From NCBI RefSeq assembly GCF_006345805.1, contig NC_043000.1:62620001-62684000 (forward strand): a stretch of 64,000 nt of DNA, written 5' to 3'. The notes beneath the pieces were generated by a model. It was not told where the DNA came from. It ran no database searches and worked only from the letters and a program-made list of their open reading frames with translations. Shown here in pieces: positions 20,541 through 53,160 of the stretch; the first letter of the stretch is position 1; each line of letters begins with the position of its first letter. The DNA is from Octopus sinensis (Eukaryota). The position numbers and the translations under genes are program-made.

Positions 20541-20764
20541 ATTGCTGCGTGGAAGGTGTTTATAAGCCATTTAAAACATACAAAAACTGTTAGATTCACT
20601 TCAACATTTAAATTTAATTTGCCAAAATTCCGTGCTGCATTTTGTCAGTGAACAGGTTGCGGTCTGAAAGCGACGAAAATATTTTAGCAAACTAAATTTA
20701 AATGTTGAATCTAACGGTTTTTGTGTGTTTTTAAATGGCTTATAAACACCTTCCACGCTGCAAT
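20541..20764. repeat. Foldback (inverted) pLTR-like repeat, ~80-bp arms
   Basis: 20541-20620 is the reverse complement of 20688-20764. Confidence 0.85.
20641..20691 (+). ncRNA. Minimal type I hammerhead ribozyme motif, G3-C8 core variant
   Basis: tttgtca-GTGAACA-g-gttgc(ggtctgaaa)gcgac-GAAA-atat-TT-tagcaaa. Confidence 0.65.
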
Positions 20765-21008
20765 ATACTAATCGCTTCATGCATCCGAGACGCGGGTCTA
20801 GGCAGGTTTTTATAACATGCCATGTGTCTCCAAGCAATATTTAGGTTCTAAGCACATGGTCTACTCTCATCTCCATTGAATTACACTACTACTAGCTTTT
20901 CTTTAAAAGCATTTGCTCACGCTTTTGATTTCACTTCTGGTTCTCGTTTTAAACTCCATGCAAGCGAAGTCATGAAATTGCGTTGCTGTTTAAGCTGTTA
21001 TAAATTAA

Positions 21009-21393
21009 CTAGAAGTATCGCACGGCGTTGCTCGGGCTTGTAAGGGAAATAACTATAAAGCATTTTTAGAGAGTTATAGCCAAAAAATAGCAAAAAAATG
21101 GGTAAAAAAATGATGGTAAATTTTTTTTGATAGTTAAAAAGGTCGAGTTGCGTCCCCTAGACCATCTGTGGTTTGTGTTTCTGATTGTCGAACCCATGTC
21201 GAATTTATCGATCTTTTTCAGAACTGGGGGAACTTTTCAAAATTTTCGCTGCGTTAGTTTTGAATTATGACATTGGGCTATGTGTGTGTCAAGTTTCATC
21301 AGAATCGGTTGAAAGCCGTGGTCAGAGTGAGGGTACAACCAAACAGACACACAGAAACACACACAGACAAACTGCCGTTTATATAGAGAGAGA
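21009..21393 (-). mobile_element. Non-autonomous Helitron
   Basis: Minus strand A|TCTCTCTCTATATAAAC ... CCCGAGCAACGCCGTGCG subterminal hairpin ... CTAG|T; no TSD. Confidence 0.8.
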
Positions 21394-22069
21394 TACTTTT
21401 AGATAATACTTTTAATCAATGCGTATTCATTTTGTATGTGCCTGTGCAGATACATACATACACATATACACACTCATACACACACATATACACAGAGAAC
21501 TATATATTCATGTATACATATTCACATACGCATACATACTTATAAGCACACATACACACGCATCCACACATATTATAATATATATCCATAAAATCTATTA
21601 ATTAAACATTTCGAAACCAATTTTGTTTGTTTTTGTTTTTTCTTTGTTTATTTTTTGCTGTTTTTTTTTATTTTTTGTTTTGTTTTTGTTTTGTTTTGTT
21701 TTTCCTTTGAACCAGAACGAAATTCAAGGAGGCTTATATTTGCATAAAAGACACTTAGCCGCGTGCATAGGCCTTCACAACTCAGTAATAGCTTGAACAA
21801 AAGAAGTGAACTGTTAAGTCTTGTTTTTGAACTCCACCACCGCTTGACAACCGATGTCGGTTTGTCCCATAAATTTGCGGTTCGGCAAAAAGCGACCGAT
21901 ATACTAAGTAACAGGCTTAAAAAAGATAAGTACTGAGGTTGATTTGTTCGACTAAACTTTTCAAGGCAATGCTCCAGCATGGCCGCAATCCAATGACCAA
22001 AACAAGTGAAAGATAAAAGATAAACAATCAAGAGTTTATAAAAATAACCACGATAATAAAACGAAAATA

Positions 22070-22470
22070 AAGGTGCTGAGCTGGCAGAATCGTTAGCACG
22101 CCGGGCGAAATGCTTTGCGGTATTTCGTCTGCCGCTATGTTCTGAGTTCAAATTTCGCCGAGGTCGACTTTGCCTTTCATCCTTTCGGGGTCGATTAAAT
22201 AAGTACCAGTTACGCACTGGGATCGATATAATCGACTTAATCCGTTTGTCTGTCCTTGTTTGTCCTCTCTGTGTTTAGCCCTTGTGGGTAGTAAAGAAAT
22301 AGGTATTTCGTCCGTCTGCACGTTGCGAGTTCAAATTCCGCTGAGGTCGACTTTGTCTTTCATCCTTTCGGGGTCGATAAAATAAGTACCAGTTGAGTAC
22401 TGGTGTCGATATAATCGACTAGCCTCTCTCCCAAAATTTCAGGCCTTGTGCCTTTTTTAGAAAGGATATT
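22070..22470 (+). mobile_element. SINE family A dimer with two different tails
   Basis: First unit ends CCCTTGTGGGTAGTAAAGAAATA, second ends GGCCTTGTGCCTTTTTTAGAAAGG. Confidence 0.88.
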
Positions 22471-24254
22471 AAAATGAAAATAAAGTATATACAGTAAAGA
22501 TAATAACGGTATTTGATAGATAGATATATGTAGACTGCTCACAATCCAAGCAACAGCACAACTTTCTTTCTACCTGAAGGGTCCATTAGAGAAAAATGGT
22601 TGTTTTTTTTTCAATTCTTGCGGTCATAGCTTTAAAGATCAACTCTTCTATAAACTCACCTAGAGATTTATTGTTGCTAACCAATACCTATTTCTTTTGT
22701 ATTCTAAATGTGATCCTATGAGTCAGGTCAGTTTAAACGCGAAAGAATATATTAATAATATCGAGCCAAGCGATAGATTTGTAGAATCGTTTGAGTGTTG
22801 GACAAAATGACTTGCGGTATTAATTATTTCTTCTTTACATTCTGAGAACAAATACCACCAATGTCAACTTCGTCTTTCAACCTTTTCTAGTCAATCAAAT
22901 AAAGCCCCAACCATATAGTATCGAGTATACGTATATACCCTGTCCTCAAATGCATGGCTCTTTGCCAGTTTCAAAAATCAATATTATCTAAAAGTTTTAC
23001 GTAGTAGATTTGGATAACCAGCTTAGCGAATTAACGTGATTTCTGAAAATATGCACTCTTGTATCGTACTAAGTAATTATCACTCTTAATATCTAAAACA
23101 CCAAATCACACACAAATCTTTTTGCTTTTGTATTCTTTTTAGATTTTCAATTTCTTTTGTTTTTCCTGAGTTCTGTCATACTCCCACGTTAGAAAGAGAA
23201 ATCAGTGGTTGTGCTGAAAGAAATGAAACAAAGAAGGAGAGTATTATAAAGTAGGTTACATTTATAAATTTATAAAGGTGGAATATTGACAGAGTGGAAG
23301 AGGAAGAGAGGGAAATAAACAGCAGTGAGAGGTTTGTGATATAACAGTAATGCCAGCTAACAGTAAAATACTGTAAGAGATGAAAAAAGAGTGACAAAGG
23401 AAGAGATGGCGTAAGAGAGAAGAGGTGGAAAGATTTGAGAGCTCTGTAATACTTAAAGAGAAAGATTTAAAGTGATAAAGTAACAAACGTATAGACAAAG
23501 AGTAAATATCTAAAAAAAATTATAGAGAACGAGAAAGGAAATTAGAGAGAGTAAAAGAGGAAAAAAGAAATCTAGGCATATGGAAGTGTTTGATGAGGAC
23601 AATAGGAAATATGAAAAGGCAACCAATGTAGATTTGATTAAGAGGAAAATGTGGGGAAAATGTACACAGAAATTGAGAGAAACAGAAAAAAAAACTAATA
23701 AAGCACATGAGTAAGTCCTTAAAAATAATTGTGGAGTGTGGGCAGTAATAAGGAGGATAAAACAACTCAAAGATAAAACGAAACACAAAAGGAAAGTTTT
23801 GAAAAACTACTGGTTTTATTAAGTACTACGTAATTTTGAGTGTGTGTGTGTATGTATGTATGTATGTATATCTATTTGTGGGGGTGTGTACGTGTGAGTG
23901 TGTGTGTGTTTGCTAGAAAGTAGGAAGAGTTTGATAGTGCCCTCGAATTTTGGCTTACTAAAGGTCATCAGAGCGTTAATGGTATATAAACCAAAACTTC
24001 GAAGTCACTATTAAACTTTTCCTTCTGAGCCTTAAAAAATGGCACTCCACTAAAAGCTATTGAGTGATCCTTCGATCTGTTTAACAGCTCATGTGTATAA
24101 AACTTCACATAAAAACAAACACCTGTATACACACACAGTTACACACATAAATACATACAAGTGTATGTGTGTTCTTTTGCTGGACCGCTAAGTTTCACAG
24201 ACATAAACACACCAACACCTTTATACAAATACATATACATACATTTATATATAT

Positions 24255-24288
<34 letters not shown>

Positions 24289-24381
24289 AATATTATTAGA
24301 GACAAAACCACTATTTTGCAAAACAAACAAGGAAAGACTTAATCAATACATAAAATTTTAATAAATAGTCAAAAAAAACCG

Positions 24382-24424
24382 CCACTACAATTGTTTCTTG
24401 TCTTGATCGACAATCTTCAGGTGG
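24382..24424 (-). ncRNA. Minimal type I hammerhead ribozyme (C3-G8)
   Basis: Reverse complement identical to 25384-25426. Confidence 0.85.
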
Positions 24425-25383
24425 ACTTCCAATTTCAAAAACGGGAACCTGCATGCCATGTTGGTGTTGGTAATTGAGTGAAACAGGTCAGTCTTGTGTA
24501 GAAACACATTAGTTTAAAACAGAGGCCATACGAGAAAGAAACCATCTGTTGACACTTACGCTTGGCATTATGCTTCCTTTTTCCCCTTTAGGTCATCTTA
24601 CACATCATCTAAGTCGTCTGGTAATAGTCCTTGACTTAAATGTTGGAGTAGATTTCTGCGAGACAAAGGAAAGACTATGTTCAACTGAACTCCGACAGAA
24701 AAATATTGCATTGAATCAAGTTATTCTAAAGTGTCTGCGTATATATATATAAGCCAATTTCGAATCGTTGTTGTAGAATTAATTAGTGTTTTTGTTTTAC
24801 AAAATACACAAAATGTATACCACAAATAGAGAACTGTATGGCAGATAGGTTAGCAGGTGATGTGTATGTGTACACGAACACATAAATGCTTATTCGATAT
24901 ATGTCCGTGTTGTTTCTTAGCTTTAAGACGTCTTGCGAGAGTCTTCGTTTTTAAATAAAACACATCATAATTACGGAATACTTTGGCTTAGATTCTTTTT
25001 CAAACAGACGGGTGCCTATATATATATATATATATATATATCAGGGGCGACTCCAGGTCATCAGCGTCTCTCGGACTCATCACAGATTTCGCATAAGACA
25101 CATGCCTGCTCGAAGAATTTCTGGTTTTTCCGCTCTATTTCTGGCTCCAAATGGCTTATTTTTTATATCTAGCTCTATGCTAAGGGTAAAAATAAAGCAA
25201 AACCTGCAAAACACAGCTGATCTTTACACAACAGAATAACAGCAATCGAATAGTGACATCGGAATGCACAACAACCATCAGCGATCTGGCTAGCCAGATC
25301 GCTGATGGTTGTTGTGCATTCCGATGTCACTCAATTACCAACACCAACATGGCATGCAGGTTCCCGTTTTTGAAATTGGAAGT

Positions 25384-25426
25384 CCACCTGAAGATTGTCG
25401 ATCAAGACAAGAAACAATTGTAGTGG
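25384..25426 (+). ncRNA. Minimal type I hammerhead ribozyme (C3-G8)
   Basis: ccac-CTGAAGA-ttgtc(gatcaa)gacaa-GAAA-caattg-TA-gtgg; predicted cut after A25422. Confidence 0.85.
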
Positions 25427-25605
25427 CGGTTTTTTTGACTATTTATTAAAATTTTATGTATTGATTAAGTCTTTCCTCGTTTGTTTTGCAAAATAGTGGT
25501 TTTGTCTCTAATAATATTTTATAATATTTTACTATAAAATTGGATTTAATCCTAAATCTGATTTTTTCCCTGTAAATTTAGATTTATTCCCTAATATTTA
25601 TTATT

Positions 25606-25636
<31 letters not shown>

Positions 25637-25719
25637 CAAGCTATACACATACATATATATATGTATATATAAACTTACTTGGAAATGGAGGTGTGGCGTT
25701 CAATCATATAATAATATAA

Positions 25720-26330
25720 ATAATATATATATGTATATACATATGCATATATGGGTACAGGACGTCATAAAACGTAAATAACATGAAATACGAAATACGA
25801 TAACATGAAATAAGAACTTTTTTGCGAACAACGAAAGAAACAAATAGAAAACAAGACAAGTAACATAAATAACGACCCTTCATCAGTTGTCGGCTGTTTT
25901 ATCTACTCCACATTTCGAGCAATTACGACAAGATGTATCTTCGAGATACAGTTGCTCCTGCAAAGCAAAATAAAATTTGGGATTTGCAGAGGGTCAAAGT
26001 TGATAACAAAAACAGGACAGTGAAAACAAACAGTAAGGACTGCTATGCCATAATGAGGTGAGGTGGCGAACGCTGGAGAACAAGCTTTGACAGGAGAAAA
26101 GAGAGGAAACAGACAAGAATGTGTGTGATCTATGTGGCAGATCAAAAGGAAAGAAAGAAGCTCAAGTTAGGAAAAGAAAGGTGGCCTATGGTCACGTGTG
26201 AGCAACGAGAGAGTAAATGAAGAAGAGTGGGAAGGAGAGAGGGACAGATACAGAAAGGTGAAGGGGAGAGGAAAAGAATTAGAGAAAGAATAGAGAGGAA
26301 ACGAAGAAGGAAGAGAGAGTGGTACAGAGA
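25720..26330 (-). repeat. pLTR-like repeat family E, copy 2
   Basis: Homologous to 18855-19093 and 27760-28060. Confidence 0.65.
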
Positions 26331-26353
26331 GTCATCAAAATTATTAAGATAAA

Positions 26354-26405
<52 letters not shown>

Positions 26406-26985
26406 TATGTATATGTATATATGTATGTATGTATTGCATGTGGATTAGACTTAAGCAAAGGATATTTGTTAGAAGTGTATATGTGTCTATATATAAATAG
26501 ATAAGTATGGATATTTTCTCTTTTACTTGTACATCTGTATGTTATGTTTTATTCTATTTAGCTGTAACATGTATTATCTATTTCAGTTTTTTATAAATAT
26601 TTTGAATGTGTGTAAGTAATATATATGTGCGCATATACAAATTGATGTATGCTTGTACTTTTTCTTCTTTATTTAACTTTCTTTTATTTCTACCTTCAGA
26701 AGTAATAAGTATGTAAATAAGAAGTGTATATGTGTGCATATATAAAGCGATATGTATATATGTGTATGTCATTTTACATTATTATACTATTTCTTACCTG
26801 CTTAGAATGCATATAAGAATTTTTTTACCTAGTTAGAATGTATCTAAGAATTATATATATGAGCATGTGTAGATGAATATATCTGTGTATGTTTTTGCAT
26901 CTATACACATCTGTGTATATATACAAAAACATATAAAAATAGATACACTACATATATGGAGGTTAGACTTTATATTTATATATAT

Positions 26986-27041
<56 letters not shown>

Positions 27042-27042
27042 C

Positions 27043-27074
<32 letters not shown>

Positions 27075-27121
27075 CTGTGTGTGTGTATTTATATATATAT
27101 GTGTGTATATATATATATATA

Positions 27122-27390
27122 TATCACCGTGATCACCGTGACCAACCAGGCTATAAGATGTTGCTACACATTGCTGGTCACAATGCACTTCGCATTGTTT
27201 TAGCCTTCTAATGACACCACCCCGCTGGCTAAGTGAGCAGGCCAACAGAAAAAAGAGCAAGAGAAAGTTGTGGTGAAAGACTACAGCAGGGATTGCCTCC
27301 ACCCTCTGCTGGAGCCTGATGGGGCTTTAGATGTTTTCGCTCAATAAACACTCACAATGCCCGGTCTGGGAATCAAAATCGTGATCCTAC
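27122..27390 (-). mobile_element. Another tRNA-derived SINE, 5'-truncated
   Basis: Minus strand begins with B-box-like TTTTGATTCCCAGACCGGGC, ends (CACGGTGAT) repeats. Confidence 0.5.
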
Positions 27391-27745
27391 ATAATTACTG
27401 GTATCCTTATATATCACTATATTTTATATCTCATATCTTATATGCAAAGAATAATATGCTATATGTATGTATGTTATTATAATTATCAGTTTAATAAATA
27501 AATAAGTTAACGTTTTAATGTCCAAAAGTTGATGAACCACCTATTGTTCTCCTCCATTTTCTTATTTGCGATATAAATTAATGGTAAAATATCTCTTTAC
27601 CCTCACCCATTTAATATACTAGGTAATGTAATTGCAATGCAATAAAAAACACTTGTGTATTAATAATTGGGTATTCTACTAGCAGTATATTGGCTTGATA
27701 CTATTCCTTAGTGGGTTGGATCCACAACCCCTAACTTTCTTGGAG

Positions 27746-27759
<14 letters not shown>

Positions 27760-27782
<23 letters not shown>

Positions 27783-28060
27783 TGTGCATATATGGATACA
27801 GGACGTCACCAACTGTGTAAACAACATGAAGTACAAAAACAAACAAGTTCAATACACAAACAGCAAAACAAAAAGTGGCAAATAGGACAAGTAACACAGA
27901 GAGCAACCCTTCATTAGTTGTCGCCAGTCTAGCTACTCCTCATTTCAAGCCTTCAATGACAAATATGAGTCTTCAAAGCAGTTACTCCCAAAAGTTCCAA
28001 AATAAAATTTGGGATTTATGAAGGGTTAAAGTTGTGAACAAAAACAAGACAGTGGAGACA
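27760..28060 (-). repeat. pLTR-like repeat family E, copy 3 (decayed)
   Basis: Homologous to 25740-26030. Confidence 0.65.
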
Positions 28061-28294
28061 TACATATTCTTTTATTCATTTCGGTCATTTGACTGCGGCT
28101 ATGCTGGAGCACCACCTTTAGTCAAACAACCCAGGACATGTTCTTTGTAAGCCTAGCACTTATTCTATCAGTCTTTTTTGCTGAACCACTAAGTTATGGG
28201 GATGTAAACACAGCAACATCGGATATCAAGTGATGGTGGGGGTACAAACATCAGACACACACTCATACACACCCTCACACATATGTATATACTC

Positions 28295-28703
28295 TTTACT
28301 CTTTTACTCTTTTACTTGTTTCAGTCATTTGACTGCGGCCATGCTGGAGCACCGCCTTTAGTCGAGCAAATCAACCCCGGGACTTATTCTTTGTAAGCCC
28401 AGTACATATTCTATCGGTCTCTTTTGTCGAACCGCTAAGTGACGGGGATGTAAACACACCAGCATCAGTTGTCAAGCAATGCTAAGGGGACAAACACAGA
28501 CACACAAACACACACACACATATATATATATACATATATACGACAGGCTTCTTTCAGTTTCCGTCTACCAAATCCACTCACAAGGCTTTGGTCGGCCCGA
28601 GGCTATAGCAGAAGACACTTGCCCAAGATGCCACGCAGTGGAACTGAACCTGGAACCATGTGGTTGGTTAGCAAGCTACTTACCATACAGCCACTCCTGC
28701 GCC

Positions 28704-28705
<2 letters not shown>
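28295..28705 (-). mobile_element. tRNA-derived SINE family B, full length
   Basis: Reverse complement of 42299-42708; partial copy at 28070-28260. Confidence 0.9.
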
Positions 28706-28762
<57 letters not shown>

Positions 28763-28972
28763 CTTACAAACATATGTATACATATGTATGTATATATATA
28801 TATGTGTGTGTGTGTATATATTTATATATATTTATGTATATATACACACACACATATATGCGTGTGTGTATACACATGCACATATATATACATTTATATA
28901 TACTTACTTAGGTGATCAAGAGAGTCATAATACATATATGTGAGCATGTGTGTGTGCATACACACATAGATA

Positions 28973-29011
<39 letters not shown>

Positions 29012-30839
29012 TTACACACATAAATACAGACATACATATATGTATGTGTTTGTGTCTGTGGTGTGTGTGTGATGTGTAAGGTATAAAGTTTGTCTGTCTA
29101 CATTCCTGTATCTTATTTCCAAAATAAGCTTCTCTGTGTCACATTATACTTGGAAAACATGGGATATAACATTTTGGGGTTTTTAACATCAAATTATTCC
29201 ACTAATGAACTCAATCTAAAATAAGAAATAAAAAACTTTAAAAAAAGTATTGCATTCACATTGTTTTTTATAACACAGACATTGTGTTTTGGTAGTTTAA
29301 CAAAAAATATGTACAAATTAAATATTGTGGACCTGGAAAAATATGTCAACATTTTATAACAATAAAATAAGCTCTAAAGAATTTGATTGACACAGACACC
29401 ATTGTTAACAACACGTATACATTAGTTTTATGATACATATTTCCCTAAAAATAGCTGTCATTTGAAGACAGTGCTTCTTAACTTGGAAAGGAAACAATAC
29501 AAATGTTTATGTATGGATCCCAACCAGAGAATAATAACACTACCTACATTGTAAAAGCAATTAAACATAAGAAATGAATGTTTCAGTAACATATACAAAG
29601 TATATTTGGCTCAGCTCCATATCAACAACTACAAAGCATTCTTTGTTGTAATTTCTTCTGGCTTCAAATAAAATCTGAGTAGCTAGTAATGAGGTAGCCA
29701 AATGATTCAATACCTCTTTAATAGCAATATTCCTATTATTGACACAGACAGGTCTTGATGTTAGAAGTGTGTGTTACCAAACTTGATATCACAAAGCATC
29801 TGAATTACAGTTTTACAGTCCAAAGACAAACACAGTTGGCTGAAGCAAGAATCTAACTACCGACCTACTAGAGAGTCAATGGTTTGTATCTTATCATATA
29901 TGAGCAGGTGTAATAGACTCTTAACTGTAGCTGGCTAAGTCAACCTGATTTGAATAAGTAGACTGGTATATTGCAGTAGCTCAGCACTTCAAAGAACAAA
30001 AGTGAATCCATAAAGAATGCATATGTCACTAACCAGTAAATGTCATTGAAGTTCTACTTTAAGCCTGGACCATAACAAAAACATACATCTGAACATTAAT
30101 TATATTAATTTTAATACTAACCACAGAGAGAAAATATGATATCAGGACAATGCTGAAATGAAGAAAAGAAAATCTTATAATTTTAAAAGTGATGTTGAAC
30201 TACACATTCATTAAGTCAAGTTACAGCACTAATTTGAAATAAATAGGTTTAATTCAACCATTTAAAAGAAATATATCCCCTCTCAAAGGATCTTCATTTC
30301 AATGCCACATCCCCTTTCAAAAGAGCTTTGTCTTGCAAGTTACTGGAGACCTTGCCAGTACTGGTGCCACATAAAAACATGGTGTTGTCTTCTACCTAGC
30401 CAGCTCCTGTCAATCTATCCAACTCGTGCAAGCATGGAAAACGGGTGGTAAATGATGATGATGATGATGATGATGAAGATCAATTCATGAGTAATGTAAG
30501 TGGCCATGACAGGTAATATTTAGTTTAATCCTACAGGAAGTAGAACGAAAATATATCATGTCTGTATCCAATTCAAAGGAGTTTATTATTTTTTTTTTGT
30601 TTTGTTTTTTTTTTTTTTGGTATTGGGATTCTGCTAAGTCAGCCTTATAAATTTCTAAGTTTGTAAACTAACTTATAAAATTAAATTTTGACGTTTTTAA
30701 GAGAAGTGAAGTGGTTAGCTCTCTTCTCTCTTTCTCTCTCCCTCTCTCTCTCTCTCTCTCTTTGGTCTTGAGTGACAACAAAGAATTTACTATTGATAAT
30801 ACTGGATACTGGTCAATATTATTTTCATTACCAAAGTTA

Positions 30840-32150: not shown

Positions 32151-32790
32151 TACATCATATGTAAACAAGCATAAGTGTTGAAATGTATTGTGGAACAAGT
32201 AGAAAAATATATTTTTCAATGCATAAATACTGATAGAACAACATATATAGGATAAAATCCTTTAAGAGCAGAAACATTTTTCAGCAACCAGCATTGAGTA
32301 TTGAACTCACACCCCTCTAATTTCCAATCAGAGTGCTCTACCTTCAAGCTAAACTGTTGTCTGACGAATTTTTCTGCAATTTTAGTTCGATCCTCATGGC
32401 TAGTTGTCGACAAATTTTTCTGCTCTTAAATGATTTTATCCTATATATGCTGTTGGTATCAGTATATACGTGTTGAAAAATATATCTTTCTACTTGTTCT
32501 ACGATACATTTCAATGCTTCAAAAGCAAAATTATGTTTGTTTACATATGACATAATTTATGACATCTAGCATTTCTGGATGACTTTATAGTTCTAAAATT
32601 GCAGTAGAATTCGTCAGTCAGCAGTATAGCTTAAAGGTAGAGCACTCTGACCGTAAATCAGAGGGCTGTGAGTTTGATCCTCATGGCTGGTTGCTGACAA
32701 ATTTTTCTGCTTTTAAAGGATTTTGTCCTATATTTGCTGTTCTGTCAGTATTTATGCATTGAAAAATATATCTTTCTACTTGTTTTATAT
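32150..32790. repeat. Inverted plus direct repeat cluster containing a tRNA-like pseudogene
   Basis: 32195-32385 is reverse complement of 32592-32785; partial direct copy 32385-32560; tRNA-like 32617-32691. Confidence 0.75.
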
Positions 32791-36532: not shown

Positions 36533-36691
36533 AGTGGATCTTGAATTACATAAAGCCATAAATAATAGCATGTAAATATTGGATTAAAATCCTCTTTTGG
36601 ATAGAAATGTCCACGTTTTCTATCCAGAAGGATTTCTCAACCCAATATTTACATAATGTTATTTATAGTTTTATGTGATTTGAGATCCACT
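36533..36691. repeat. Imperfect ~160-bp palindrome
   Basis: AGTGGATC...TGTAAATATTGG...GGATAGAAA / TTTCTATCC...CCAATATTTACA...GATCCACT. Confidence 0.8.
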
Positions 36692-40461: not shown

Positions 40462-40494
40462 CATGATTTGTGTGCTGCTTTGAGTAAAACCACT
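40462..40494 (-). other. Candidate 33-bp exon
   Basis: Acceptor TTTTTTTTTTTATATAG and donor ATG|GTAAGT in unique sequence. Confidence 0.5.
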
Positions 40495-41508
40495 CTATAT
40501 AAAAAAAAAAAGCTTTCAAGATAGATGCAGCTATGGCTGTGAATAAGAAGTTTGCTTCTAACCATATGATTCCAGGTTTAGACCCTTAAGCAAGTGTCTT
40601 CTAGTATAGCCTCAGACCAACCAAAGCTTTGTGGGAGGATTTAGAAAATGGAAACTGAAAGAAACCTGTCATCTATGTGTGTGTGAGAGAAAGAGAGTGT
40701 GTGTGTATTGGTATGGTAAATGTTACATCTCCATAACTTAGCAGTTCAACAAAAGAAAGTGATGGAATAAATATCAGGTTTCACAAAAAATAATAATTAC
40801 TGGGGTTGAATTGTTCAGCTAAAATTTTTCAAGGCGGCGCCCCAACATGGCCGCAGACTGAAACATGTAAAAGATATTTCTACAAGCTGTATAATAAAAT
40901 CCTCGTCATCATCATCATTTAAAATCCATTTTCCATGACAATGTGGGTTGAACAGTTCGACAGAAGCCAGCAGAGATATGTGAGATGTAAATGAATAATA
41001 TATTTAGAGTTGGATTCCAAACTGTCCCATTTTATAGATAAAAAAATATACATGAGCTGCTCCAGCTGGTGAAGAGGATTGGCCTGCAAGAGTCCTGTGC
41101 CACTGTCGCATAAAAAGCACTCATGCCGGTGCCATGTGAAAGAACTCGTGTGATTCCACCTTAAATGCACTCAGCACACACTGTAAAGTGATTGGCATTA
41201 GGAAGGGATTCCAGCTGTGAAAACCAAGCCAAGTCAGACTGGAACCTGGCGAAATTCCCCCAGCTTCCCAGCTCTGGTCAAACTGTCCAACTGACATTAA
41301 AGGATGATGATGATGAAGGTGGTGGCGGTGGTGATGGTGGTGGTGGTGGTGATGGTGATGACAAGGAGGAGGAGGAGGGGAGGGGGCAATCATTAAAAAA
41401 AGAAAAACAGCTGAAACTCAAACACTTCCAACCTCAAGCATCTTTGATAAAAGATTATCAAGCTGTTATACACCTGTGTCAGTTGAAATAAACAGTTACT
41501 AAAGTTAC

Positions 41509-41581
41509 CTTTCTGTTGCTTAGTAAAATATCAGGTGCTTTCATTGTATTTTGTATGCAACTAATAAAATTGAAAGTCTGT
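41509..41581 (-). other. Candidate 73-bp exon, copy 1
   Basis: Acceptor TTTTAATTTTCTCTTCAG, donor AAG|GTAACT. Confidence 0.5.
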
Positions 41582-42298
41582 CTGAAGAGAAAATTAAAAT
41601 AATAATGATAACAATGTTACTAATAAATCAATACAGATATCAAAAGTAAGAATATAACACTGCATAACAATATTTTTTTTTTATCTTTATTTCCTATTTG
41701 CTGCTATCTAGAAATCAAAGGAAATGACTACTATTCTCTTCAAACTTTGCTTTTGTGACCTGGACATTAATATTTTGAAACAGACCTATTTTCCATTACA
41801 ATTCAGACAAATTCAGCATTGAGTTGCTGAAGCAGAAATATCGTTATAGCAAATATTCTGCTCAATACCACAGATTTGCTTGTCAGTTGTTTGACTTTAA
41901 CCACTTGAGCATGTCCCTTGGTGGCTGACAATATATGCATCTCTGATCATGAGTAAGAGTTGTGGAGGAGCATCATAGCTATGTGTTGATAGGGATTCTT
42001 TGGGGTTTGAATAAATGCAACAAAAGCAAAGTCTGAAGGAAATATTAGGAAATAACACTTGCTACTCAAGGGCAAAAATCGTGTTACACAGTGTAATTAA
42101 TCTACAATAAATTAATTAATAAAGAGGCTTTTTAACATCAAACAACAAAAATTCTTCCATGAGAGACTTAAACATTTTTAGATACGGTAGACCATCTTCA
42201 AGAGAGTTTTATCTAAATGAACTGTATTATGTGGAAAATGTTAAGCCATAACATGTGTAGATGCTAATCTGTACTATATGAAAAATGTTAAACAATAC

Positions 42299-42708: not shown

Positions 42709-43227
42709 AATACTATGTGGAAAAGATTAAGCGTTTTAGGAGGAAAATATTAAAATATACTTTGTGGAAAATGTTAAATTATAATTATATCACACTGTAG
42801 AGTGGTAGGCATTTGGAAGGATATCAAGCTGTAAAAGCCATGCCAAAACTAACCTCACTTATGTTGATGCCACGTAAAAAGCACTCATCCCACTCTGCAG
42901 AGTGGTTAGTGTTAGGAAGGGCATTCATTCATAACCACCATGCCAAACAAACACAGAGGTATGATGCAGACTTCTGTCTGACCAGCTCCAGTCAAACCAT
43001 TCAGTCCATGCTAGTATGCAAGGAAAATGTTAAACAACAACGATGACGACGATGACGACGACGACGAGGACGAGGGGGGGGGAGGGAGGAGGGGAGGAGG
43101 AGGCAATCATTAAAAAAAGAAAAAACAGCTGAAACTCAAAACACTTCCAATCTCAAGTATCTTTGATAAAAGATTATCAAGCTGTTATACACTTGTGTCA
43201 GTTGAAATAAACAGTTACTAAAGTTAC

Positions 43228-43300
43228 CTTTCTGTTGCTTAGTAAAATATCAGGTGCTTTCATTGTATTTTGTATGCAACTAATAAAATGGAAAGTCTGT
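43228..43300 (-). other. Candidate 73-bp exon, copy 2
   Basis: Same splice sites retained; one substitution versus copy 1. Confidence 0.5.
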
Positions 43301-44114
43301 CTGAAGAGAAAATTAAAATAATAATGATAACAATGTTACTAATAAATCAATACAGATATCAAAAGTAAGAATATAACACTGCATAACAATATTTTTTTTT
43401 AATCTTTATTTCCTATTTGCTGCTATCTAGAAATCAAAGGAAATGACTACTATTCTCTTCAAACTTTGCTTTTGTGACCTGGACATTAATATTTTGAAAC
43501 AGACCTATTTTCCATTACAATTCAGACAAATTCAGCATTGAGTTGCTGAAGCAGAAATATCATTATAGCAAATATTCTGCTCAATACCACAGATTTGCTT
43601 GTCAGTTGTTTGACTTTAACCACTTGAGCATGTCCCTTGGTGGCTGACAATATATGCATCGCTGATCATGAGTAAGAGTTGTGGAGGAGCATCATAGCTA
43701 TGTGTTGATAGGGATTCTTTGGGGTTTGAATAAATGCAACAAAAGCAAAGTCTGAAGGAAATATTAGGAAATAACACTTGCTACTCAAGGGCAAAAATCG
43801 TGTTACACAGTGTAATTAATCTACAATAAATTAATTAATAAAGAGGCTTTATAACATCAAACAACAAAAATTCTTCCATGAGAGACTTAAATGTTTTTAG
43901 ATAAGGTAGACCATCTTCAAGAGAGTTTTATCTAAATGAACTGTATTATGCAGAAAATGTTAAGCCATAACATGTGTAGATGCTAATCTGTACTATATGG
44001 AAAATATTAAACAATACTATGTGGAAAAGATTATGCATTTAATGAGGAAAATGTTAAAATGTATTGAGAAAAATGTTAAACTGTACTTCGTGGAAAATGT
44101 TAAATTATAATTAG

Positions 44115-44390: not shown

Positions 44391-45409
44391 GGCAAAATGT
44401 TCCAAATACCCGTGTGACAGTTTATCATTGTTGTTGAATAATGCTGCTCAGCTGGTGTAGACCCAGCACTGAAGAGATGTCTAGATTTTTAGATTAAGTT
44501 TCATTTGTAATCAGTGGTCTATCTTACAGGCATCATATATCAAATGTAAGCAGGCTGTCTAAAGATATACAAGGGGGTATTGAAAAGTTCCTGGTTTTGA
44601 GTAAAAGAAAATACAGGAGGATCAGATTCACACACTTATTGCAACAGTCCTTCAGTTTTTCTAAACTTTATAAAAGAACTCACAAAAGCTTAGTTGGTGG
44701 CCCAACCAGGCCTTTCATGATACCCTTAAAGACAAACCTTACAGCACTTCCTCACATAACATGTTCTTGTTCCCATTTAACACATAGTAAGGTCTTTATT
44801 CTATATCAGTTTGTAAACGAGTGTTGTTAGTTTTAGGTTTTCAATAGACTACTCTCTGGTCCACTTCATTGAGAGTTCATTGCAATGAAAATAATAAGGG
44901 AACGTCTATAACTTAGTACAGAACAAATATTGAAAAGCAGTTGATTTTATATATATATATGTACTAAGTTTTCTTGCTGGTGCTAACATATTTCCTCAAT
45001 ATACATTAGTAAAAGATATAAACACATGCACATGCATGCACGTACACACACACACGTACACACACACACACACACACACACATTGAGAGATGCAACATGC
45101 TTTTGTAGTTTATTCCATTCACAAGATCGTCATCAACTTGCAATGTATCATGCACAGAAATTGAATCCAGAACCATATAGCTGTATAGTAAAGATTTTAA
45201 AAACAGGGCTACTCCTATACCCATCAAGAGAGATGTAATTAGATTTTCTATTCTGAATAAGATAAGTAATACTATATGATTCAGGGAATTGACCACAAAT
45301 AAATTGGTTAGCTTTATATTCTAACATTGCTAAAATAAGTAGCAATCAATTACTGGGGGTCAACAAAATTACTGGCCTTGTGCCTAAATCAGATGCCATT
45401 ACTATTATT

Positions 45410-47330
45410 TGGTCAAAGTGTTAGCTATGAGGTTGGTGCTTGTTGGGGATCTGGTAGGGAAGACATAGACATGCGCCATCCCGGAAAGATCCATCCACAA
45501 CAACCTCCACCTCATGCACTAAATCATTGAGAAAGTGACTAAAGAACCTGGCACAGGTGGGGTCCTGATCAATTTAGATCTGTCTAAAGCTTTCAATAGA
45601 GTCGACTCTCTATGCCTGGTGATGGTCCTCAAGGCAGCTGGTTTGGGGCCTGCATTCAAGGACTGGATCACTGCAATACACAGTGACATCTGTTCAGTGG
45701 TGAACAGATGTGAACAGTCCCTTCTCGGAGCCATTCAACACCATGCGCTCAGTCCGACAAAGTTTTCCCCTCTCGTCTCTCTTGTATATACTGACTCTTG
45801 AGCTACTACTACACAACACCCACTGCGTGGTGGCCTGGGCATGCCATAGTTGATGATGTGCAGACATGTGCTTCCTTGATGGTGAGCAGGTGTGGTCACC
45901 ATTCACCAGACATGTATTTCTGCTGCTAGTTTCTTTAATGGAGCTGCAGTCCTGGGTAAAACAGAGACCAATGAGGAGCATTTGGAAAGTGGAATGTTTT
46001 CAAGCACTCACAGCCCTCAACCAATTGAACACAGTGTTAGGTGGAACGACCACTTTAGTTCTTTATAGAGGATTAGCTGAGGGAAAGTGCAACGAAGTTC
46101 TTGGGGAGACCTTGGGCATAGAAGATTAGCTAGTCACTCTTTTCCAGAGAACTTTCAGCCCGGGATGTGAAATTTTTTTCCCACAAAAGTTCTGGACCCC
46201 AGTAATGAATTTATTTGCATACAGCCAATCAGAGCTCACCTTGACCTTGTTGTTTGTAAGTTGACCAATCGCCAAATTATGCCTGATTCTAGGAGGAAAC
46301 AAGTAATTATATTTGCATCTATACCTATTATTGGATTTTGTTAGGGTCTCATATGGCAAAGATGTGGATGGGAAAAATGTGTAGAGGTTGATGTGCTAGC
46401 AACCCTTTCTCCTTATTGTTTTAGAAAGTAAACAACATAAATAATTATGCAGAAGCAGCCATGGTTGAAACAGGAACAAGAACAGTAAGCATTCTTAACA
46501 GAGAAAATAAGCATGGCCATTCCTTACCCAAGTGACCTTATCTTATCGTCCATCACTTGTTATGCACTCATAGATTAGTTTGATAATTGAGCTCTGGTTG
46601 GCTGTGTGCAAATGAGTTCATAACTGGGATCTGGAACTCTCATGAGAAAAAAAAAATCTCTGGCCTGGCAGTGCTACTGGAGAACATAAACTTTACTGGG
46701 AGATAAACTTTACAGGCACGGAAGTGCCGTCAGTTGAGCATGCCTGAGATGCCTGCAGTACAATGAAACAGCCCTGCATGCACCCATCCAGTGCCCAAGC
46801 ATTGCTGACCAGTAGGTTTATGTCAAACACCTGCTGTCATGTGTAAGACAAATCTGGCTGTCAACTGAATCCCTCGTGAAGATCACCCCATCGCCTTCCT
46901 TTAAGTGGGAAGGAAAGGCTGTGTTTATATGCCTGGTGGTCATGGTGAAAGTTGTATGGTGGACGAGATTGAAGGGGCTGAAGACAAACACTTTTCTTTT
47001 TCACCAATCCCTAATCAACTTCTTCAAGTTTCACTTGAAAAGGAAAATAAGGGTATAGAGGGAAGTGTTGTCTTCTAGCCAGTTTGCTGAAAGGTAGATG
47101 AAAGTGGTGAGAATGCCCTGAGTTGGAAAAAAAGGCACCAGCCCCAAAAGTCAGAGTACCCATGGTTTTTATGGGGGTTTTTTCCATGAGCAGCCCTTGA
47201 ACATCTCCTCCCTATTGAGGGTGACACACCATTGATTTTTTTTTCTAAGCTTGTTCAGCACACTCACTCACACATACACGCACACACATTTTTTTATTTT
47301 GTCCTGTACTGCCCATAATGTTTTCCTTAA
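45410..47330 (+). mobile_element. Degenerate Tx1/L1-clade LINE interrupted by a foldback element
   Basis: LINLDLSKAFNRVD; C-terminal pieces homologous to 38936-39535. Confidence 0.8.
46165..46657. mobile_element. Foldback element, same TIR family as 59854-60576
   Basis: TTTTTTTCCC..GAGTTC.GGA.CCCAGT.ATGAA.T.ATTTGCA.ACAGCCAA.CAGAGCTC at both ends. Confidence 0.8.
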
Positions 47331-47334
47331 TGCA

Positions 47335-48150
47335 CTTGGGTCGATGTAATCGACCTATCCCACACCTGAAATTGCTGGTCTTGTACCAAAATTTCAAAGC
47401 ATTATTATTATCATCATTATTAAAATGAAGATGGTGAGCTGGCAGAACTGTTAACACACTGAACAAAATCCTTAGCAACATTTTTTCTAAATTTATGTTC
47501 TGCTAAATTCAACTTTGCCTTTCATCCTTCTGGAGTCGATGAAATAGGTACCTGTTGAGCACTGGATGTAATTGAGCAGCCCCTCCCCCATATTTCAGGC
47601 TATGTGCCTATAGTAGAAGGGATTGTTATTAAAATGCTTAGTGGCATTTTATCCATCTTTACATTCCACCAAGATCGACTTTACTTTTATCCTTTTGGGG
47701 TTGATAAAATAAGCACCAGCTGAGTGCTAGGGTTGATTTAATCATTTAACCTGTTCTTGCAAAATTTCAGGCCTTGTTCGTATACTAGAAAGAATTCTTA
47801 ACATTACTAATATGCTTAGCAGCATTTGTCCCAGCTCTTTAGATTCTGAGTTGAAATCTTGCTGAGGTCAGCTTTGCTCTTCAGCTTTTAAGTACCAGCC
47901 AAATACTAGCACAGATCGATGTATTTAACTAAACCCCTGCCCTCAGAATTGCTGGCCTCATGCCAAAATCAGAAAGAATTAGTATTATTATATCACTACC
48001 ATTACAAGGTGGTGAGCTGGCAGAATTATTAGCATGCTGGGCAAAATAACTTAGCAACATTTTGTGCATCTTTACATTCTGAGTTCAGATTCTGCCATAA
48101 TTGACTTTGCCTTTCATCCTTTCGGGATTAATAAATTAAGTACCAGTCAA
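47335..48150. mobile_element. Cluster of decayed SINE family A copies
   Basis: Five or so partial cores. Confidence 0.8.
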
Positions 48151-48174
48151 GTACTTAATTTATTAATCCTGGTA

Positions 48175-48854
48175 CAGGCATCACCCATGTTATGGATACC
48201 TCGGGTTGTGGAATTTCATACTTACAGAAATTGTGAAGTATGACCATTAATTTGGGGATATGGTCTGTAATTTTGCTAACAATTTAAAACTATACTTATT
48301 TTTTAGTTCAATCAGCATTTGTGTTTTATTTAAGATCAACATATATATTCAACTATTTGGAAAACTATAATCACGTTATACACATACATGCACACATATA
48401 CACACATGTATATATATAATGTACATAATATGAGAATATATATATATATTCTATTTATAAAAGAAAGTATTTGTGTATATGTGTGTGTGTTTCTATCAGC
48501 AGCACCAACACATCCACCAAAGCAACAGTAATATATAGTATGAAGAAGACAAGCAAATCCATTTCAAATAAAAACATATAATGAGGTGTCATAGAGCATT
48601 TTTAAAAATTGAATGCAATGTCTTTGATCTTACATCTATGAGGATTGATAAAGACTAAGCAGTAATAACAATATATGCCGGTGGCTTGTAAAAAGCATTC
48701 ATTACACTCTTGGAGTGGTTGGCAAATCAGACTGGATTCTGATGCAGCCCTCTGGTTTACTAGCTAGTCAAACCATCCAACCCATGCCAGCATAGAAAGT
48801 GGACATTAAATGGTGGTGGTGTGGTGTTGTGTGGTGGTGGTGGTGGTGGTGATG

Positions 48855-48889
<35 letters not shown>

Positions 48890-49940
48890 AACCTACAGTT
48901 AGAGATTTCTGGAAGAAATTCAACATAATGAAAGCTATGGATAATATAGCTGAGTCATGAGATGAAGTGAAACCTTCAACTTTGAAAAGTGCTTGGAAAA
49001 GTATATGGCCAGACTGTATGCATGAGATTACAAGTTTCCTTCAAGCATAAAGTCTACATCAAATTTGGAAAGATATTGAGACATTTGCAAATGATGTAGG
49101 ATTTGAAGAAGCTATAGAGGATGATGTGATTGTGTTGCTAGAATCCCAGAGAGAAAGTTTATCTGACATGAAGCTGATGTTGTTAGAAAAAGAAACTGAG
49201 AATACAGAAGAGACAACAGAAATTCCACCTACACCACTTAAATTGACTACAAAAATTATTGTTTAAGGGCTGGCACATATCAAGGACGCTTGGCAGGTTT
49301 TTGCTGATAAAGATTGTAATCATGAAAATAACATGAAAATTACAAATTACAAAATTACAATGAGCTCAGGTTCCTGCTCTGGGCTGTATGAAGAGATGAT
49401 GTGTTATAAACAACAAACAGCTTTGTATAAATTTTTTGCCTCTCAAGCTGAAGTTCATGAGAATGAACTATAAGATAATAAATATTGCTGCTCATCCTCT
49501 TAGTAACACTCATTCCACTGCTACCCCTCACAGAGTAGTCAACATCTTTTGTAGTAAGAACATACTCTTATGATATGATTCTTATTAATTCTCTAAAGTA
49601 GTCCTGTAGAAATAATTTTGGTTTTATGTATTTATATTGTACTGTGTGTTATTTTCATGTATCTACATTATATTATTTTTAAGTATCTATATTATTATTA
49701 TTATTTCCATGTATTTATATTATACTGCATATGTTTTTTCATGTATAAAGGTGACTGTGTTGCTTGTTCTCTGCTGTTTTCTTGTGCTCCTTCTTTTTCT
49801 TCTTTTTTTCTAAAAAAAAAAGAATGCCATTTCACTTGATAATATGAAAATCAATAGGTAAATTAACTCCATATTATGGAATTTCACATTATAGCCAGAT
49901 TTTCAGGAACGCATTGCTTCTGTAAAGTGAGGGATTCCTG
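48175..49940 (+). mobile_element. Decayed Tigger/pogo-like DNA transposon
   Basis: TA|CAGG...CCTG|TA ends; PTVRDFWKKFNIMKAMDNIAES*DEVKPSTLKSAWKSIWP at ~48890-49015; GFEEAIEDDVIVLLES. Confidence 0.75.
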
Positions 49941-50279
49941 TATTTGATCATGGTATTTGTGAATGCCATTTGATATTATCTCAAAAGCATTCACAGTAGG
50001 TTCTTCTGTTTCATCTAGTATTATTAAATTACTATTATTAATCTCGTATTAATAAAGGGATATCAAGTAGGCAGAATCATTAGTACCCTGGATAAAATGC
50101 TTAGTAACATTTCTTCTAGCTCTTTATGTTATGTATTCAAATGCTACTGGAATCAGTTTTGTCTTTCATCCTCTTGGGGGGTCAATAAAGTAAGTACCAG
50201 TCAAGTACTGGGGTTGCTGTAATCAACTTTCCCCTCCTCATCAAAAGCTGCTGGCCCTGTGTCAACATTTGAAACTATT

Positions 50280-50875
50280 ATTATTATCATTATTATTATT
50301 GACTGAGAGAGCAATGTATGCCATCAAAGTGACACTGAGGTACAACTATATAAAGCCCAATATACTCATCATGATCACCTGTCTAATAATGGTACATCAG
50401 GTGCATGCACTGCAACCATATATGTACAACATGGTGATTTCATATCAAGATAAAACAGAGCATGACCTTGCAGGAGGGGCACACTTAGAATTTTCTTCAG
50501 GTCACGTAGCCCAACCCACTCAAAAGATCCTTGAATAAGGTCTGTTTCAGAGTGATGAACAAAACACTCATGTTTCCAGAAGTGAATTATTCAAATCTCA
50601 AAGAATTCTTCTCAACACATGACTATGGTGCTCCCCACTACTCATGCTTGTGATCAGAGCTGCTCATATCATCAGCCACTAAGGGACATATTCAGGTGGT
50701 TAAGGTCAAGTAACTGAGAAGCAAATCAGTAGTATTGAGCAGAATATTTGCTGTAGCCCATCTTTTATACCAAGACAAAATAGCCCATCTTTTATACCAA
50801 GACAAAATCTACAAGATAACACTTCCAATCAGTTAAGATCAAAAGCCATGAAAGCCACTGCCTGATATTGCATCA
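50280..50875 (-). repeat. Repeat family D, longest copy
   Basis: Matches 2965-3205 and 41848-42012; internal 27-bp tandem duplication at 50754-50807. Confidence 0.7.
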
Positions 50876-50929
50876 AGGTGTTTGTTATCATCATCATCAT
50901 CATTATTATTATTATTATTATTATAGACA

Positions 50930-52600
50930 GTGGGCTTGGTAGAATGGTTAGCATGCTGGGTGAAATGCTTAGCGGTATTTCAGCTCGCTACGTTCTGAGA
51001 TCTAATTCCACTGAAGTCAACTTTGCCTTTCATCCTTTTGGGGCCAATAAATTAAATACCAGTGAAACACTGTGGTCAATGTAATTGATTAGTCCACTCA
51101 CACCAAATTTCAGACCTTGTACCTTTACTAGAAAGGATTTTAAGGTGGCGAGCTGGCAGAATCACAGGCACACCAGATGAAATGCTTATCTGTATTTCAT
51201 CTGCTGCTACATACTGAATTCGGATCTTTTCCTTTTGAACGGCACTTTTCAACACAATTTCTAGTTAACTAAACACTTTTAAACTTTGTATACTGGTAGA
51301 ATGTGTCAAAATAAAACATTTTTTTCTCTTGGCTTTCTTGAGAAAATTGTAATTTGTTTGTTTAACGTAGTTTAATTTTTCGAATTTTAACCAATCCCAT
51401 GCCCTCTATTTAGCTAAAATCATTTGCTGTGTCTAAAACAGACAACATCCTGTCACTAACCCTAACCCTAAATTTTAGCCTTTCATTTTTTTTTTCTTAA
51501 TTGTTAAATTAATTTAAGGATAACAATTAAGAAAAACAAAACAAAAGGCTAAAATGAAAGCAATGGAAAATAATTTTAATTTAACAATTAAGAAAAAAAA
51601 AAAATGAAAGGCTAAAACGAAAGCAAAAACTCAAAACAAAAACAAAACGAATAATTTTAGACACATGCATAACAATTAAATTAATTTAACAATTAAGAAA
51701 AAAAAACGAAAGGCTAAAATTTTGGGTTAGGGTTAGGGTGAAGGTTAGGGTTAGTGACAGGATGTTGTCTCAGTTTTAGACGCAGCAAATGATTTTAGCT
51801 AAATAGAGGGCATAGGATTGGTTAAAATTCGAAAAGTTAAACTATGTTAAACTTACAAATTACAATTTTCTCAAGAAAGCCAAGAGAAAAAAATGTTTTA
51901 TTTTGACACATTCTACCAGTATATGAAGTTTAGAAGTGTTTAGTTAACTAGAAATTGTGTTGAAAAGTGCCATTCAAAAGGAAAAGATCCCTGAATTCAA
52001 ATTTCACCAAGGTCGACTTTGTCTTTCATCCTTTCAGGGTCAATAAATTAAGTAACAGTTGAGTACGGAGATGTAGTCGACTATTCCCCTCCCCACAAAT
52101 TTCAGGCCTGGTGCCTATGACTGAAAGGATTATTATTATTATAAGCAGAGGACTAGTAGAATCATTAGCATGCTGGGCAAAAATGCATAACAGCATTTTG
52201 TCCATCTTTACGTTCTGAGTTCAAATTCCACCAAGGTCAACTTTACCTTTCACCTTTTCAGGTCAATAAAATAAGTACAAGTTAAGCACTGGGGTCGATA
52301 TAATCGACTTACTCCTACCCCAAAATTGCTGACCTAGTGCAAAAATTTGAAATCATTATTTTCATTATCATCTAAAGTGACAAGATGGCAGAATTGTTAG
52401 CACATCAAACAAAATGCTTAGCAGAATTTCTTCTAGCTTTTTATGTTCTGAGCTCAAATTCCACTGAGATCGACTTTGCTTTTCATCCTTTAAGGGTTAA
52501 TAAAATAAGTTTCAGTTGAGCACTGGGGTTGATGCAATTCACTAACCCCCAACTCCCTAAACATGCTGGCCTTAATCCTCATTTGGCAAGCTGGCAGAAT
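50930..52600 (+). mobile_element. Cluster of decayed SINE family A copies, one split by a foldback element
   Basis: Repeated heads and cores. Confidence 0.8.
51222..51990. mobile_element. Foldback DNA element, ~295-bp TIRs, 8-bp TSD, internal (TTAGGG)n
   Basis: TSD CTGAATTC 51214-51221 and 51991-51998; termini GGATC...GATCC. Confidence 0.92.
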
Positions 52601-52885
52601 TGTTACTTAACCCCCTCCCTTGTTTGAAAACATAAGGACACAGAACGCTTGTGTTACATGGCCAGCTGGAAACGGTATTTCCTGGGGTTAAATGGCAGTA
52701 GCATTTTTCCTTTTCCTGGGACTGCCACATTAAGTTGGCAACAAATCATCACTATATATATATATAACATTAAATTTAGGGTAAAAATTGATATTTATCA
52801 ATTAGAACCAGTGGCCTAGCAGTGGCGATTTGACGTCTATATCTAGCATGTTGACTGTCCACTTTTTCGTGTTCAGTCCTTAATT

Positions 52886-52920
<35 letters not shown>

Positions 52921-52923
<3 letters not shown>

Positions 52924-53160
52924 CACAATGACCTCAAACCCAGAAGAGTAAACAAGAGAGACAGAGACAGGCAGAAACAAGGAAAATGCCACTTGTATTT
53001 GAATACTATACAAATATTCTTTTTAAAAAACTTTTCTTTTAATTTTTCTAAATTTAATTGTTTAATTGTTACAGTTGAAAAAGTCTCAATAACTGAAACC
53101 GGTACTGAAATGTTTTTTATAAAACTAATTTAGCATTTTCTATCTTGACTTTTTTTCAAT
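52921..53160 (+). repeat. pLTR-like segment flanked by (TA)n
   Basis: (TA)n both sides, T-rich tail, contains hammerhead motif. Confidence 0.6.
53072..53107 (+). ncRNA. Minimal type I hammerhead ribozyme motif, U3-A8 core variant
   Basis: cag-TTGAAAA-agt(ctcaata)act-GAAA-ccgg-TA-ctg; predicted cut after A53104. Confidence 0.7.

Follow-up and report, generated by a model that had tools for sequence, protein, structure and literature searches.

Minimal Hammerhead Motifs at Three Loci of Octopus sinensis, One of Them in an Abundant Fold-Back Repeat Family With a Flipped G3-C8 Core Pair

Hammerhead-Shaped Motifs at Three Microsatellite-Flanked Loci

A stretch of 64,000 nucleotides from Octopus sinensis (contig NC_043000.1, positions 62,620,001 to 62,684,000), referred to as the window throughout, contains four motifs with the shape of minimal hammerhead ribozymes. 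Their cores start at +20648, +25388, -24420 and +53075, and they are the only matches on either strand to a descriptor that accepts any letter at positions 3 and 8. The core N-UGA-N-N-A, the GAAA and the UH are present in 4/4 motifs, together with a Watson-Crick pair between positions 3 and 8 that is G3-C8 at +20648, C3-G8 at +25388 and -24420, and U3-A8 at +53075. Stem III is a palindrome within A15.1-U16.1, namely AUAU at the G locus, CAAUUG at the C locus and CCGG at the U locus (4, 6 and 4 nt, respectively). In agreement with a first-pass annotation of this DNA, all four motifs were recovered with the coordinates, cores, palindromes and microsatellite flanks given there. The number four holds for sequences, but not for independent loci, since both CUGAAGA motifs are arms of one inverted duplication, so that three loci remain. 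A (TA)n/(TG)n microsatellite adjoins all three, which is a weak trait since such runs are common here (52 rows of Tandem Repeats Finder output).

G locus
20441..20477: (TA)n(TG)n run on the left of the G element, at its end
20478..20764: fold-back repeat of the G family, with left arm 20478-20628, spacer about 20629-20638 and right arm 20639-20764 (self-blast, contigs)
20478..20570, minus strand: 31-codon frame from ATG to the left-arm end; mirror ATG at +20735, 51 nt past the predicted cut
20641..20691, plus strand: G3-C8 minimal hammerhead motif (sequence, family majority letters); stem I 20641-47/20685-91, core 20648-54, extra G 20655, stem II 20656-60/20670-74, GAAA 20675-78, palindrome 20679-82, U16.1 20683, U17 20684, predicted cut 3' of 20684
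20765..20877: lower-depth repeat piece that stands on the right where a mirrored 20478-20540 would be expected

C locus
24278..24481, minus strand: left arm of the inverted duplication, ending in (AT)n 24229-24293
24382..24424, minus strand: C3-G8 motif, copy 1, core 24420-24414, identical to copy 2
25252..25331: perfect 80-nt palindrome directly 5' of the right arm (self-comparison)
25327..25527, plus strand: right arm of the inverted duplication; beyond it lies an extension without counterpart on the other side, reaching 25593, and then (AT)n 25594-25671
25384..25426, plus strand: C3-G8 motif, copy 2; stem I 25384-87/25423-26, core 25388-94 (CUGAAGA), stem II 25395-99/25406-10, GAAA 25411-14, palindrome 25415-20, U16.1 25421, A17 25422

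U locus
52921..53158, plus strand: 238-nt insert between two (TA)n runs
53072..53107, plus strand: U3-A8 minimal hammerhead motif; stem I 53072-74/53105-07, core 53075-81 (UUGAAAA), 3-bp stem II 53082-84/53092-94, GAAA 53095-98, palindrome 53099-102, U16.1 53103, A17 53104

The arms of the C locus are 98% alike over 204 columns, and their motif has a stem I of 4 bp and a stem II of 5 bp with a U-A closing pair. In the G motif, stem II likewise comprises 5 bp, closed by G-C, while stem I comprises 7 bp in the majority letters of the repeat family described below. The window copy at 20648 is decayed, with the extra G at 20655 before stem II and a mismatch at pair 2 of stem I; the succession of stem I, NUGANNA, stem II and GAAA proposed in the first-pass annotation is therefore not matched exactly at this copy. 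Positions U4, G5, A6, A9, G12, A13, A14, A15.1-U16.1 and H17, i.e., the catalytic ones, are all intact in the G3-C8 motif. The copy at 53075 is imperfect in having a stem II of only 3 bp and 3 contiguous bp in stem I, and the U locus is without an inverted partner. The layout of the motifs agrees with the published consensus of Penelope-like elements (PLEs), whose minimal type I hammerheads they resemble. Read literally, the CUGANGA(H) of this consensus occurs at the C locus only; U3-A8 is among the published exceptions, G3-C8 with an extra G is not. Between the arms of the C locus, positions 25042-25291 form a separate piece extending from the centre of the 80-nt palindrome to (TA)n 25017-25041; near the end of its minus strand lie two UGAUGA words and a small hairpin without a GAAA partner.

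Chance Level of the Motifs

Shuffling of the window (dinucleotide shuffles, 500-nt blocks, n=200) gave an expectation of 0.13 matches per window, compared with the four seen, and of 0.04 for matches with a Watson-Crick 3-8 pair, the maximum in 200 shuffles being two. The motif count thus lies above the shuffled controls that had been suggested as a check. The descriptor was composed after the motifs were known and includes a 6-of-7 rule which the 20648 copy needs. Applied with free letters at 3 and 8, it returned no match with a non-pairing 3-8 combination in the 64-kb window. Of 6,327 shuffled windows, corresponding to 810 Mb, eight reached a quality like that of the C motif together with a Watson-Crick 3-8 pair, and none reached the quality of the G family, i.e., at least five Watson-Crick pairs in stem II and at least seven pairs in stem I. 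No hammerhead was found among 123 Rfam matches at E<=10, none of the motifs was matched by a hammerhead covariance model of Rfam, and 0/3 motifs adopted a complete hammerhead shape upon folding as monomers. A weak U3-A8 look-alike at +57365 (window 57357-57410), obtained with a relaxed descriptor, was put down to chance, its stems leaning on G-U pairs.

The G3-C8 Fold in an Abundant Repeat Family

An abundant repeat family has the G3-C8 fold as its majority form, so that the motif is a family trait and not an accident of a single copy. This follows from contigs of X2, X7 and X11, three of the four public sequencing runs (of 24 listed) that were aligned on 20478-20900, the fourth being X22, and evidence of this kind from beyond the window covers the G repeat only. 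The number of aligning contigs amounted to 10,634 for X2, 4,715 for X7 and 442 for X11. X2 and X7 are counted as close kin and not as independent lineages because both cover the unique flank. Relative to the unique right end, summed depth was about 1,100-1,700-fold at 20639 and 31,000-33,000-fold in bin 20658-72, values that are inflated by overlapping short contigs and do not represent copy numbers; on a rough reading, the family comprises at least a thousand arms.

Where the window copy differs from the family majority at paired positions, the majority pairs better. At 20658, T is replaced by C in 89, 93 and 84% of depth (X2, X7 and X11, respectively, here and in the following), which converts a G-U pair of stem II into G-C; all five pairs of this stem are Watson-Crick in the family majority. 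At 20686, G instead of A (97, 98 and 99%) repairs stem I, and the same G is independently held by the window's own left arm. Position 20687 is G or A (A in 53, 76 and 53%), either letter being able to pair (A-U or G-U), while T at 20671 (4, 3 and 15%) changes a G-C to a G-U pair, and 20666, located in loop II, is mostly C or T. Within the core (20648-54) and within 20675-84 there is no variant at the 8% level among the rows listed, rare variants being dropped by contigs; eight further rows, outside this list, have the least support and rank below rows based on 1-5 contigs per run.

Self-blast delimits a palindrome from 20541 to 20764, with the G3-C8 motif just right of its centre, and the left arm lacks a hammerhead part. 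Read-through RNA from 20530 to 20775 is predicted to form a hairpin of -115 kcal/mol (z -15.6) that occupies the 3' strand of stem I. In 122 X2 contigs the central spacer is flipped ahead of the motif, which implies that in some copies a single spacer is bordered by a motif start at either end. The spacer itself reaches a depth of only 3,000-4,500 vs. 79,000 at 20639 in the same run. In loose contig ends behind 20628 (95 and 67 contigs), the motif is found as its reverse complement, beginning at A6 and with stem II perfectly paired; they were dropped as proof of full palindromes, because a single arm read backwards looks identical. On the right side of the element, the piece 20765-20877 reaches a depth of at most about 23,000 vs. 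10^5-10^6 in the arms (X2), and its likeness to the left end is not significant (57/1000 shuffles). The ends of the window copy are asymmetric and sit inside the microsatellite.

The 31-codon frame in the left arm might conceivably be the start of a parent open reading frame (ORF), and it is short enough for chance. At its single stop, position 20538, a different letter is found in 93-99% of family depth, and family variants of the frame include replacements. Reverse transcription of the anole PLE begins 111-118 nt inside its ORF (PMC11167929).

Pattern scans for relatives of the motif gave no match in metagenome_contigs in one scan and 116 loci from 52/64 parts in another, none and 18 loci, respectively, in viral_contigs, and 8 loci in genome_contigs, part of the loci being scored as one locus per distinct match. 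None of these 134 + 8 loci has both stems and the palindrome, or shared flanks, and all were rejected as chance matches.

Relationship of the Three Loci and the Question of Covariation

The motifs had been proposed to belong to one family, a view that finds no backing in their surroundings. Among the flanks of the three loci, blastn yields only a single AT-rich match of 19 nt. A weak alignment of the G and U repeats places the cores near register; with the inverted arm included, its score beats shuffles and is reached by 2 of 1,690 AT-matched segments. When the inverted arm is omitted, 77 of 2,092 AT-matched window segments reach the same score, and for the 3' flank alone this applies to 169 of 1,358. 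Kinship of the two repeats was consequently set aside as unproven, its signal fading with the inverted arm.

The interpretation of the three core pairs as natural covariation at positions 3 and 8 could not be upheld either. The cores sit in three repeats without demonstrated homology, so that comparing them does not amount to covariation within an alignment. Of 530 chance matches with a core other than C3-G8, 139 were also Watson-Crick at 3-8, which gives a chance of about 0.07 that the only two non-canonical cores seen both pair. In the G family, neither position 3 nor position 8 varies among the rows listed, so that a covariation signal is absent either way. Selection for cleavage may have acted on these cores. 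With regard to the proposal that searches for CUGANGA miss non-canonical ribozymes in this genome, two of the three motifs found here would indeed escape such a search.

Origin and Presumed Fate of the Motif-Bearing Repeats

The three repeats are probably non-coding end pieces of three Penelope-like families, each retaining the slow, dimer-cutting hammerhead of its parent, which is likely silent here. An enzyme of the Penelope type, combining reverse transcriptase (RT) and GIY-YIG domains, would have inserted the pieces at (TA)n sites in 5'-truncated form, twice with an inverted partner. Published traits of PLE insertion include inverted 5'-truncated partners, optional one-sided tails and a bias for (TA)n (PMC8557442), and at the C and G loci the inverted partner is located at the 5' side, the 3' ends face outward and a one-sided extension is present. 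The 3-8 pair may have been swapped once per parent lineage, kept there since pairing in the core mattered, and then passively copied. Parent elements would have given rise to tandem transcripts in which two motifs could pair via the palindromic stem III, with predicted cuts after position 17, i.e., at 20684 (G), 25422/24386 (C) and 53104 (U), perhaps aided by protein. In the window, no motif is covered by a tandem array and none has a direct second copy. Read-through RNA of the window copies would bury the G and C motifs in long hairpins, every listed base of the plus-strand C motif being predicted to pair with its antisense copy, and the U motif would be without a stable stem II. Because of the hairpins (G, C), the opposite-strand motifs (C) and the unstable stem II (U), cutting in the window copies is unlikely, and we predict them to be silent.

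Several observations weigh against this origin. The one-sided extensions measure about 63 nt (G) and 65-80 nt (C) vs. 30-40 bp in published PLEs. No RT or GIY-YIG domain was matched by Pfam in 18 six-frame translations, with stops read as X, around the three loci, the sole Pfam matches there being to the helix-turn-helix of a neighbouring transposase, and no autonomous parent element was seen. For the 31-residue peptide of 20478-20570 (minus strand), a search among longer proteins gave 14 candidates, none with E<=1, and 1.84 billion representative proteins contained no match. The extra base before stem II of the G motif is a G and thereby lies outside the consensus H, and an extra G at this place is reported to be strongly harmful in a viroid hammerhead (PMC3705267). 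Compensatory double changes within the G family did not occur in the aligned contigs, in which all changes are one-sided. RNA ends cannot be shown by contigs, and that X11 represents RNA is only a guess. Furthermore, 0 of 12.9 million reads of the raw-read run X22, which carries the same species label as X1, align to 20478-20900, a zero for an abundant repeat for which label, filter or sample may be at fault. As no ORF is attached to the repeats, membership in the PLEs is not claimed; what we infer is derivation from them.

Other explanations concern mainly the G family. It may be a fold-back DNA element resembling miniature inverted-repeat transposable elements (MITEs) that was amplified as a palindromic unit, the hammerhead being the fossil of an older retroelement stub without a role in spread. 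Such a history would fit the flipped spacer of the 122 X2 contigs as well as the position of the element next to a presumably Tc1/mariner-like remnant in a window that holds other fold-back repeats; by extension of the hairpin predictions, a full palindrome would hide both motifs in a duplex. On the other hand, the window copy has asymmetric ends, a target duplication is unreadable within the microsatellite, and the low depth of the spacer suggests that the full palindrome is perhaps a minority form, unless it was removed by the assembler. We consider a MITE-like origin unlikely, and as it still requires a hammerhead-bearing ancestor, the G3-C8 variant would remain. A different proposal, which we rate as rather improbable, is that the G3-C8 motif does not cut and that its hammerhead fold was kept because the protein of the element uses it as a signal in binding or folding. 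In the anole PLE, hammerhead mutants leave insertion unaffected, cutting needs added protein, and no RNA-seq read ends were seen at the cut site (PMC11167929). Minimal PLE hammerheads cut weakly in vitro (PMC4209133), rescue by G3-C8 is partial (PMC11167929) and an extra G can be harmful (PMC3705267). The intactness of all catalytic positions and the complementary nature of the 3-8 swap, however, are as expected if an active fold was kept. In addition, U17 may serve to avoid a G3-C17 mispair, by analogy with a G3-C8 variant for which C17 is stated to give less activity than G17 (PMC3884650; data not shown there).

That the motifs are mere look-alikes arising by chance in AT-rich repeats is very improbable. 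The post hoc descriptor, the imperfect copies at 20648 and 53075, the incomplete monomer folds and the lack of an Rfam hammerhead match speak for it, and for the U locus alone the family data do not speak against it. For the C and G motifs, the explanation is largely refuted by the excess over the expectation of 0.13 and by the rarity of comparable quality in the 6,327 shuffled windows, and in the G family the majority letters improve the fold instead of degrading it. An origin from Penelope-like families remains the reading that we prefer. Going beyond it, the G family could be an abundant, palindromic and non-autonomous Penelope derivative of which both arms hold a functional G3-C8 hammerhead, which would make it the first ribozyme family from nature with the flipped core pair; we regard this as possible, yet doubtful.

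Other Repeats in the Window

Further repeats are spread over the window. A large inverted repeat at 32155-32787 (192-nt arms, 88%) carries a tRNA-like sequence in each arm, detected by ARAGORN at 32286-32358 (minus strand) and 32620-32692 (plus strand) and by Rfam as tRNA with 26.5 and 33.9 bits, and is perhaps a fold-back of a tRNA-derived short interspersed nuclear element (SINE). Another one at 51215-51999 (221-nt arms, 95%) has a few telomere-like TTAGGG units around nested palindromes at its inner ends. The relaxed descriptor finds no hammerhead motif in additional fold-back or MITE-like elements at 59853-60577, 56420-56969 and 36533-36691. Two regions, 14141-15007 with inverted ends and a transposase-like frame (14321-14779) and 19300-20440 with helix-turn-helix matches at about 20120-20260 (minus strand), are taken by us to be Tc1/mariner-like remnants, the latter ending at the microsatellite beside the G element. 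A direct duplication is formed by 41368-42298 and 43085-44017 (933 columns, 98% identity). An open stretch of 349 aa at 737-1786 presumably resembles the RT and C-terminal part of a long interspersed nuclear element of the RTE type, and a SINE-like repeat of roughly 240 nt is present in many copies throughout the window.

Comparison With Known Hammerhead Systems

The PLE consensus consists of a U-rich stretch, stem I, the core with an optional extra base, stem II, GAAA, a palindrome, UH and an AU-rich stretch (PMC4209133, Fig. S3). In minimal type I hammerheads of this type, stem II measures about 4-8 bp, with G10.1-C11.1 as the usual closing pair, and stem I measures 2-6 bp. The octopus motifs share with the PLE hammerheads of PMC4209133 a short stem I, the palindromic stem III, the optional extra base, U or A at position 17 and AU-rich flanks, and also the occurrence as scattered single copies and opposite-strand pairs; opposite-strand pairs 100-700 bp apart are described in PMC4209133, as are about 1,300 U3-A8 matches in Schistosoma mansoni. 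Beginning with position 3, the U locus is identical over eight letters to the S. mansoni(4) example in Fig. S3 of that paper. The C and U layouts without extra base resemble its shrimp and Saccoglossus(2) rows, and the G layout with a 4-nt palindrome and U17 resembles its Drosophila rows. As monomers, minimal PLE hammerheads are inactive, and dimers are weakly active (PMC4209133).

The 56 aligned PLE examples of PMC4209133, none of which stems from a cephalopod, comprise 53 C3-G8, two U3-A8 and one U3-G8 but no G3-C8 core, and the extra base is a G in one of the 56. G3-C8 was not requested by the search descriptors of Cervera and de la Pena (2014; PMC4209133), and in contrast to published PLEs no PLE ORF is attached at the octopus loci. 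U3-A8 is a known natural swap at 3-8 and the only one named for this pair in section 8 of Perreault et al. (2011; PMC3088659), from which G3-C8 is absent. In the literature searched, mentions of G3-C8 hammerheads refer to laboratory mutants and no natural one was found, a provisional result as key papers and most subscription journals are outside its coverage; likewise, it yielded no paper on hammerheads of cephalopods or on PLE derivatives that are palindromic and carry a hammerhead. The C3-G8 and U3-A8 motifs are thus known kinds in a new host only. The new part is the G3-C8 family, which is well supported as a structure and constitutes a candidate ribozyme.

Non-LTR retrozymes (PMC7229834; bioRxiv 10.64898/2026.07.22.740005) are likewise non-coding hammerhead-bearing repeats that are thought to be PLE-derived. 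They form head-to-tail tandems, whereas the octopus partners are inverted and without tandem array.

If the G family does carry a working natural hammerhead, this would be a sign that animal genomes hold whole hammerhead families missed by searches for C3-G8 and U3-A8, and censuses of ribozymes in animal genomes that rely on descriptors would be undercounts. Such a family would allow to test what compensates for the flipped pair, be it the extra G, U17, the 7-bp stem I or help by protein. It also offers a handle on whether Penelope elements need ribozyme cutting. In the anole PLE, the one tested in this respect in vitro, cleavage requires added protein, and insertion does not depend on it (PMC11167929). 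The general-acid 2'-OH of the hammerhead comes from G8, and the standard example of a mutant with partial rescue is C3G/G8C (PMC8495972). The closest counterpart of the G motif is this double exchange in the anole PLE hammerhead PAc, where it partly restores cleavage (Frangieh et al., 2024; PMC11167929): the flipped pair is identical and the motif is of the PLE type in both cases, with theirs being a laboratory double mutant of partial activity. A natural and abundant G3-C8 family would show that evolution, too, makes use of a core pair hitherto known from laboratory rescue mutants alone.

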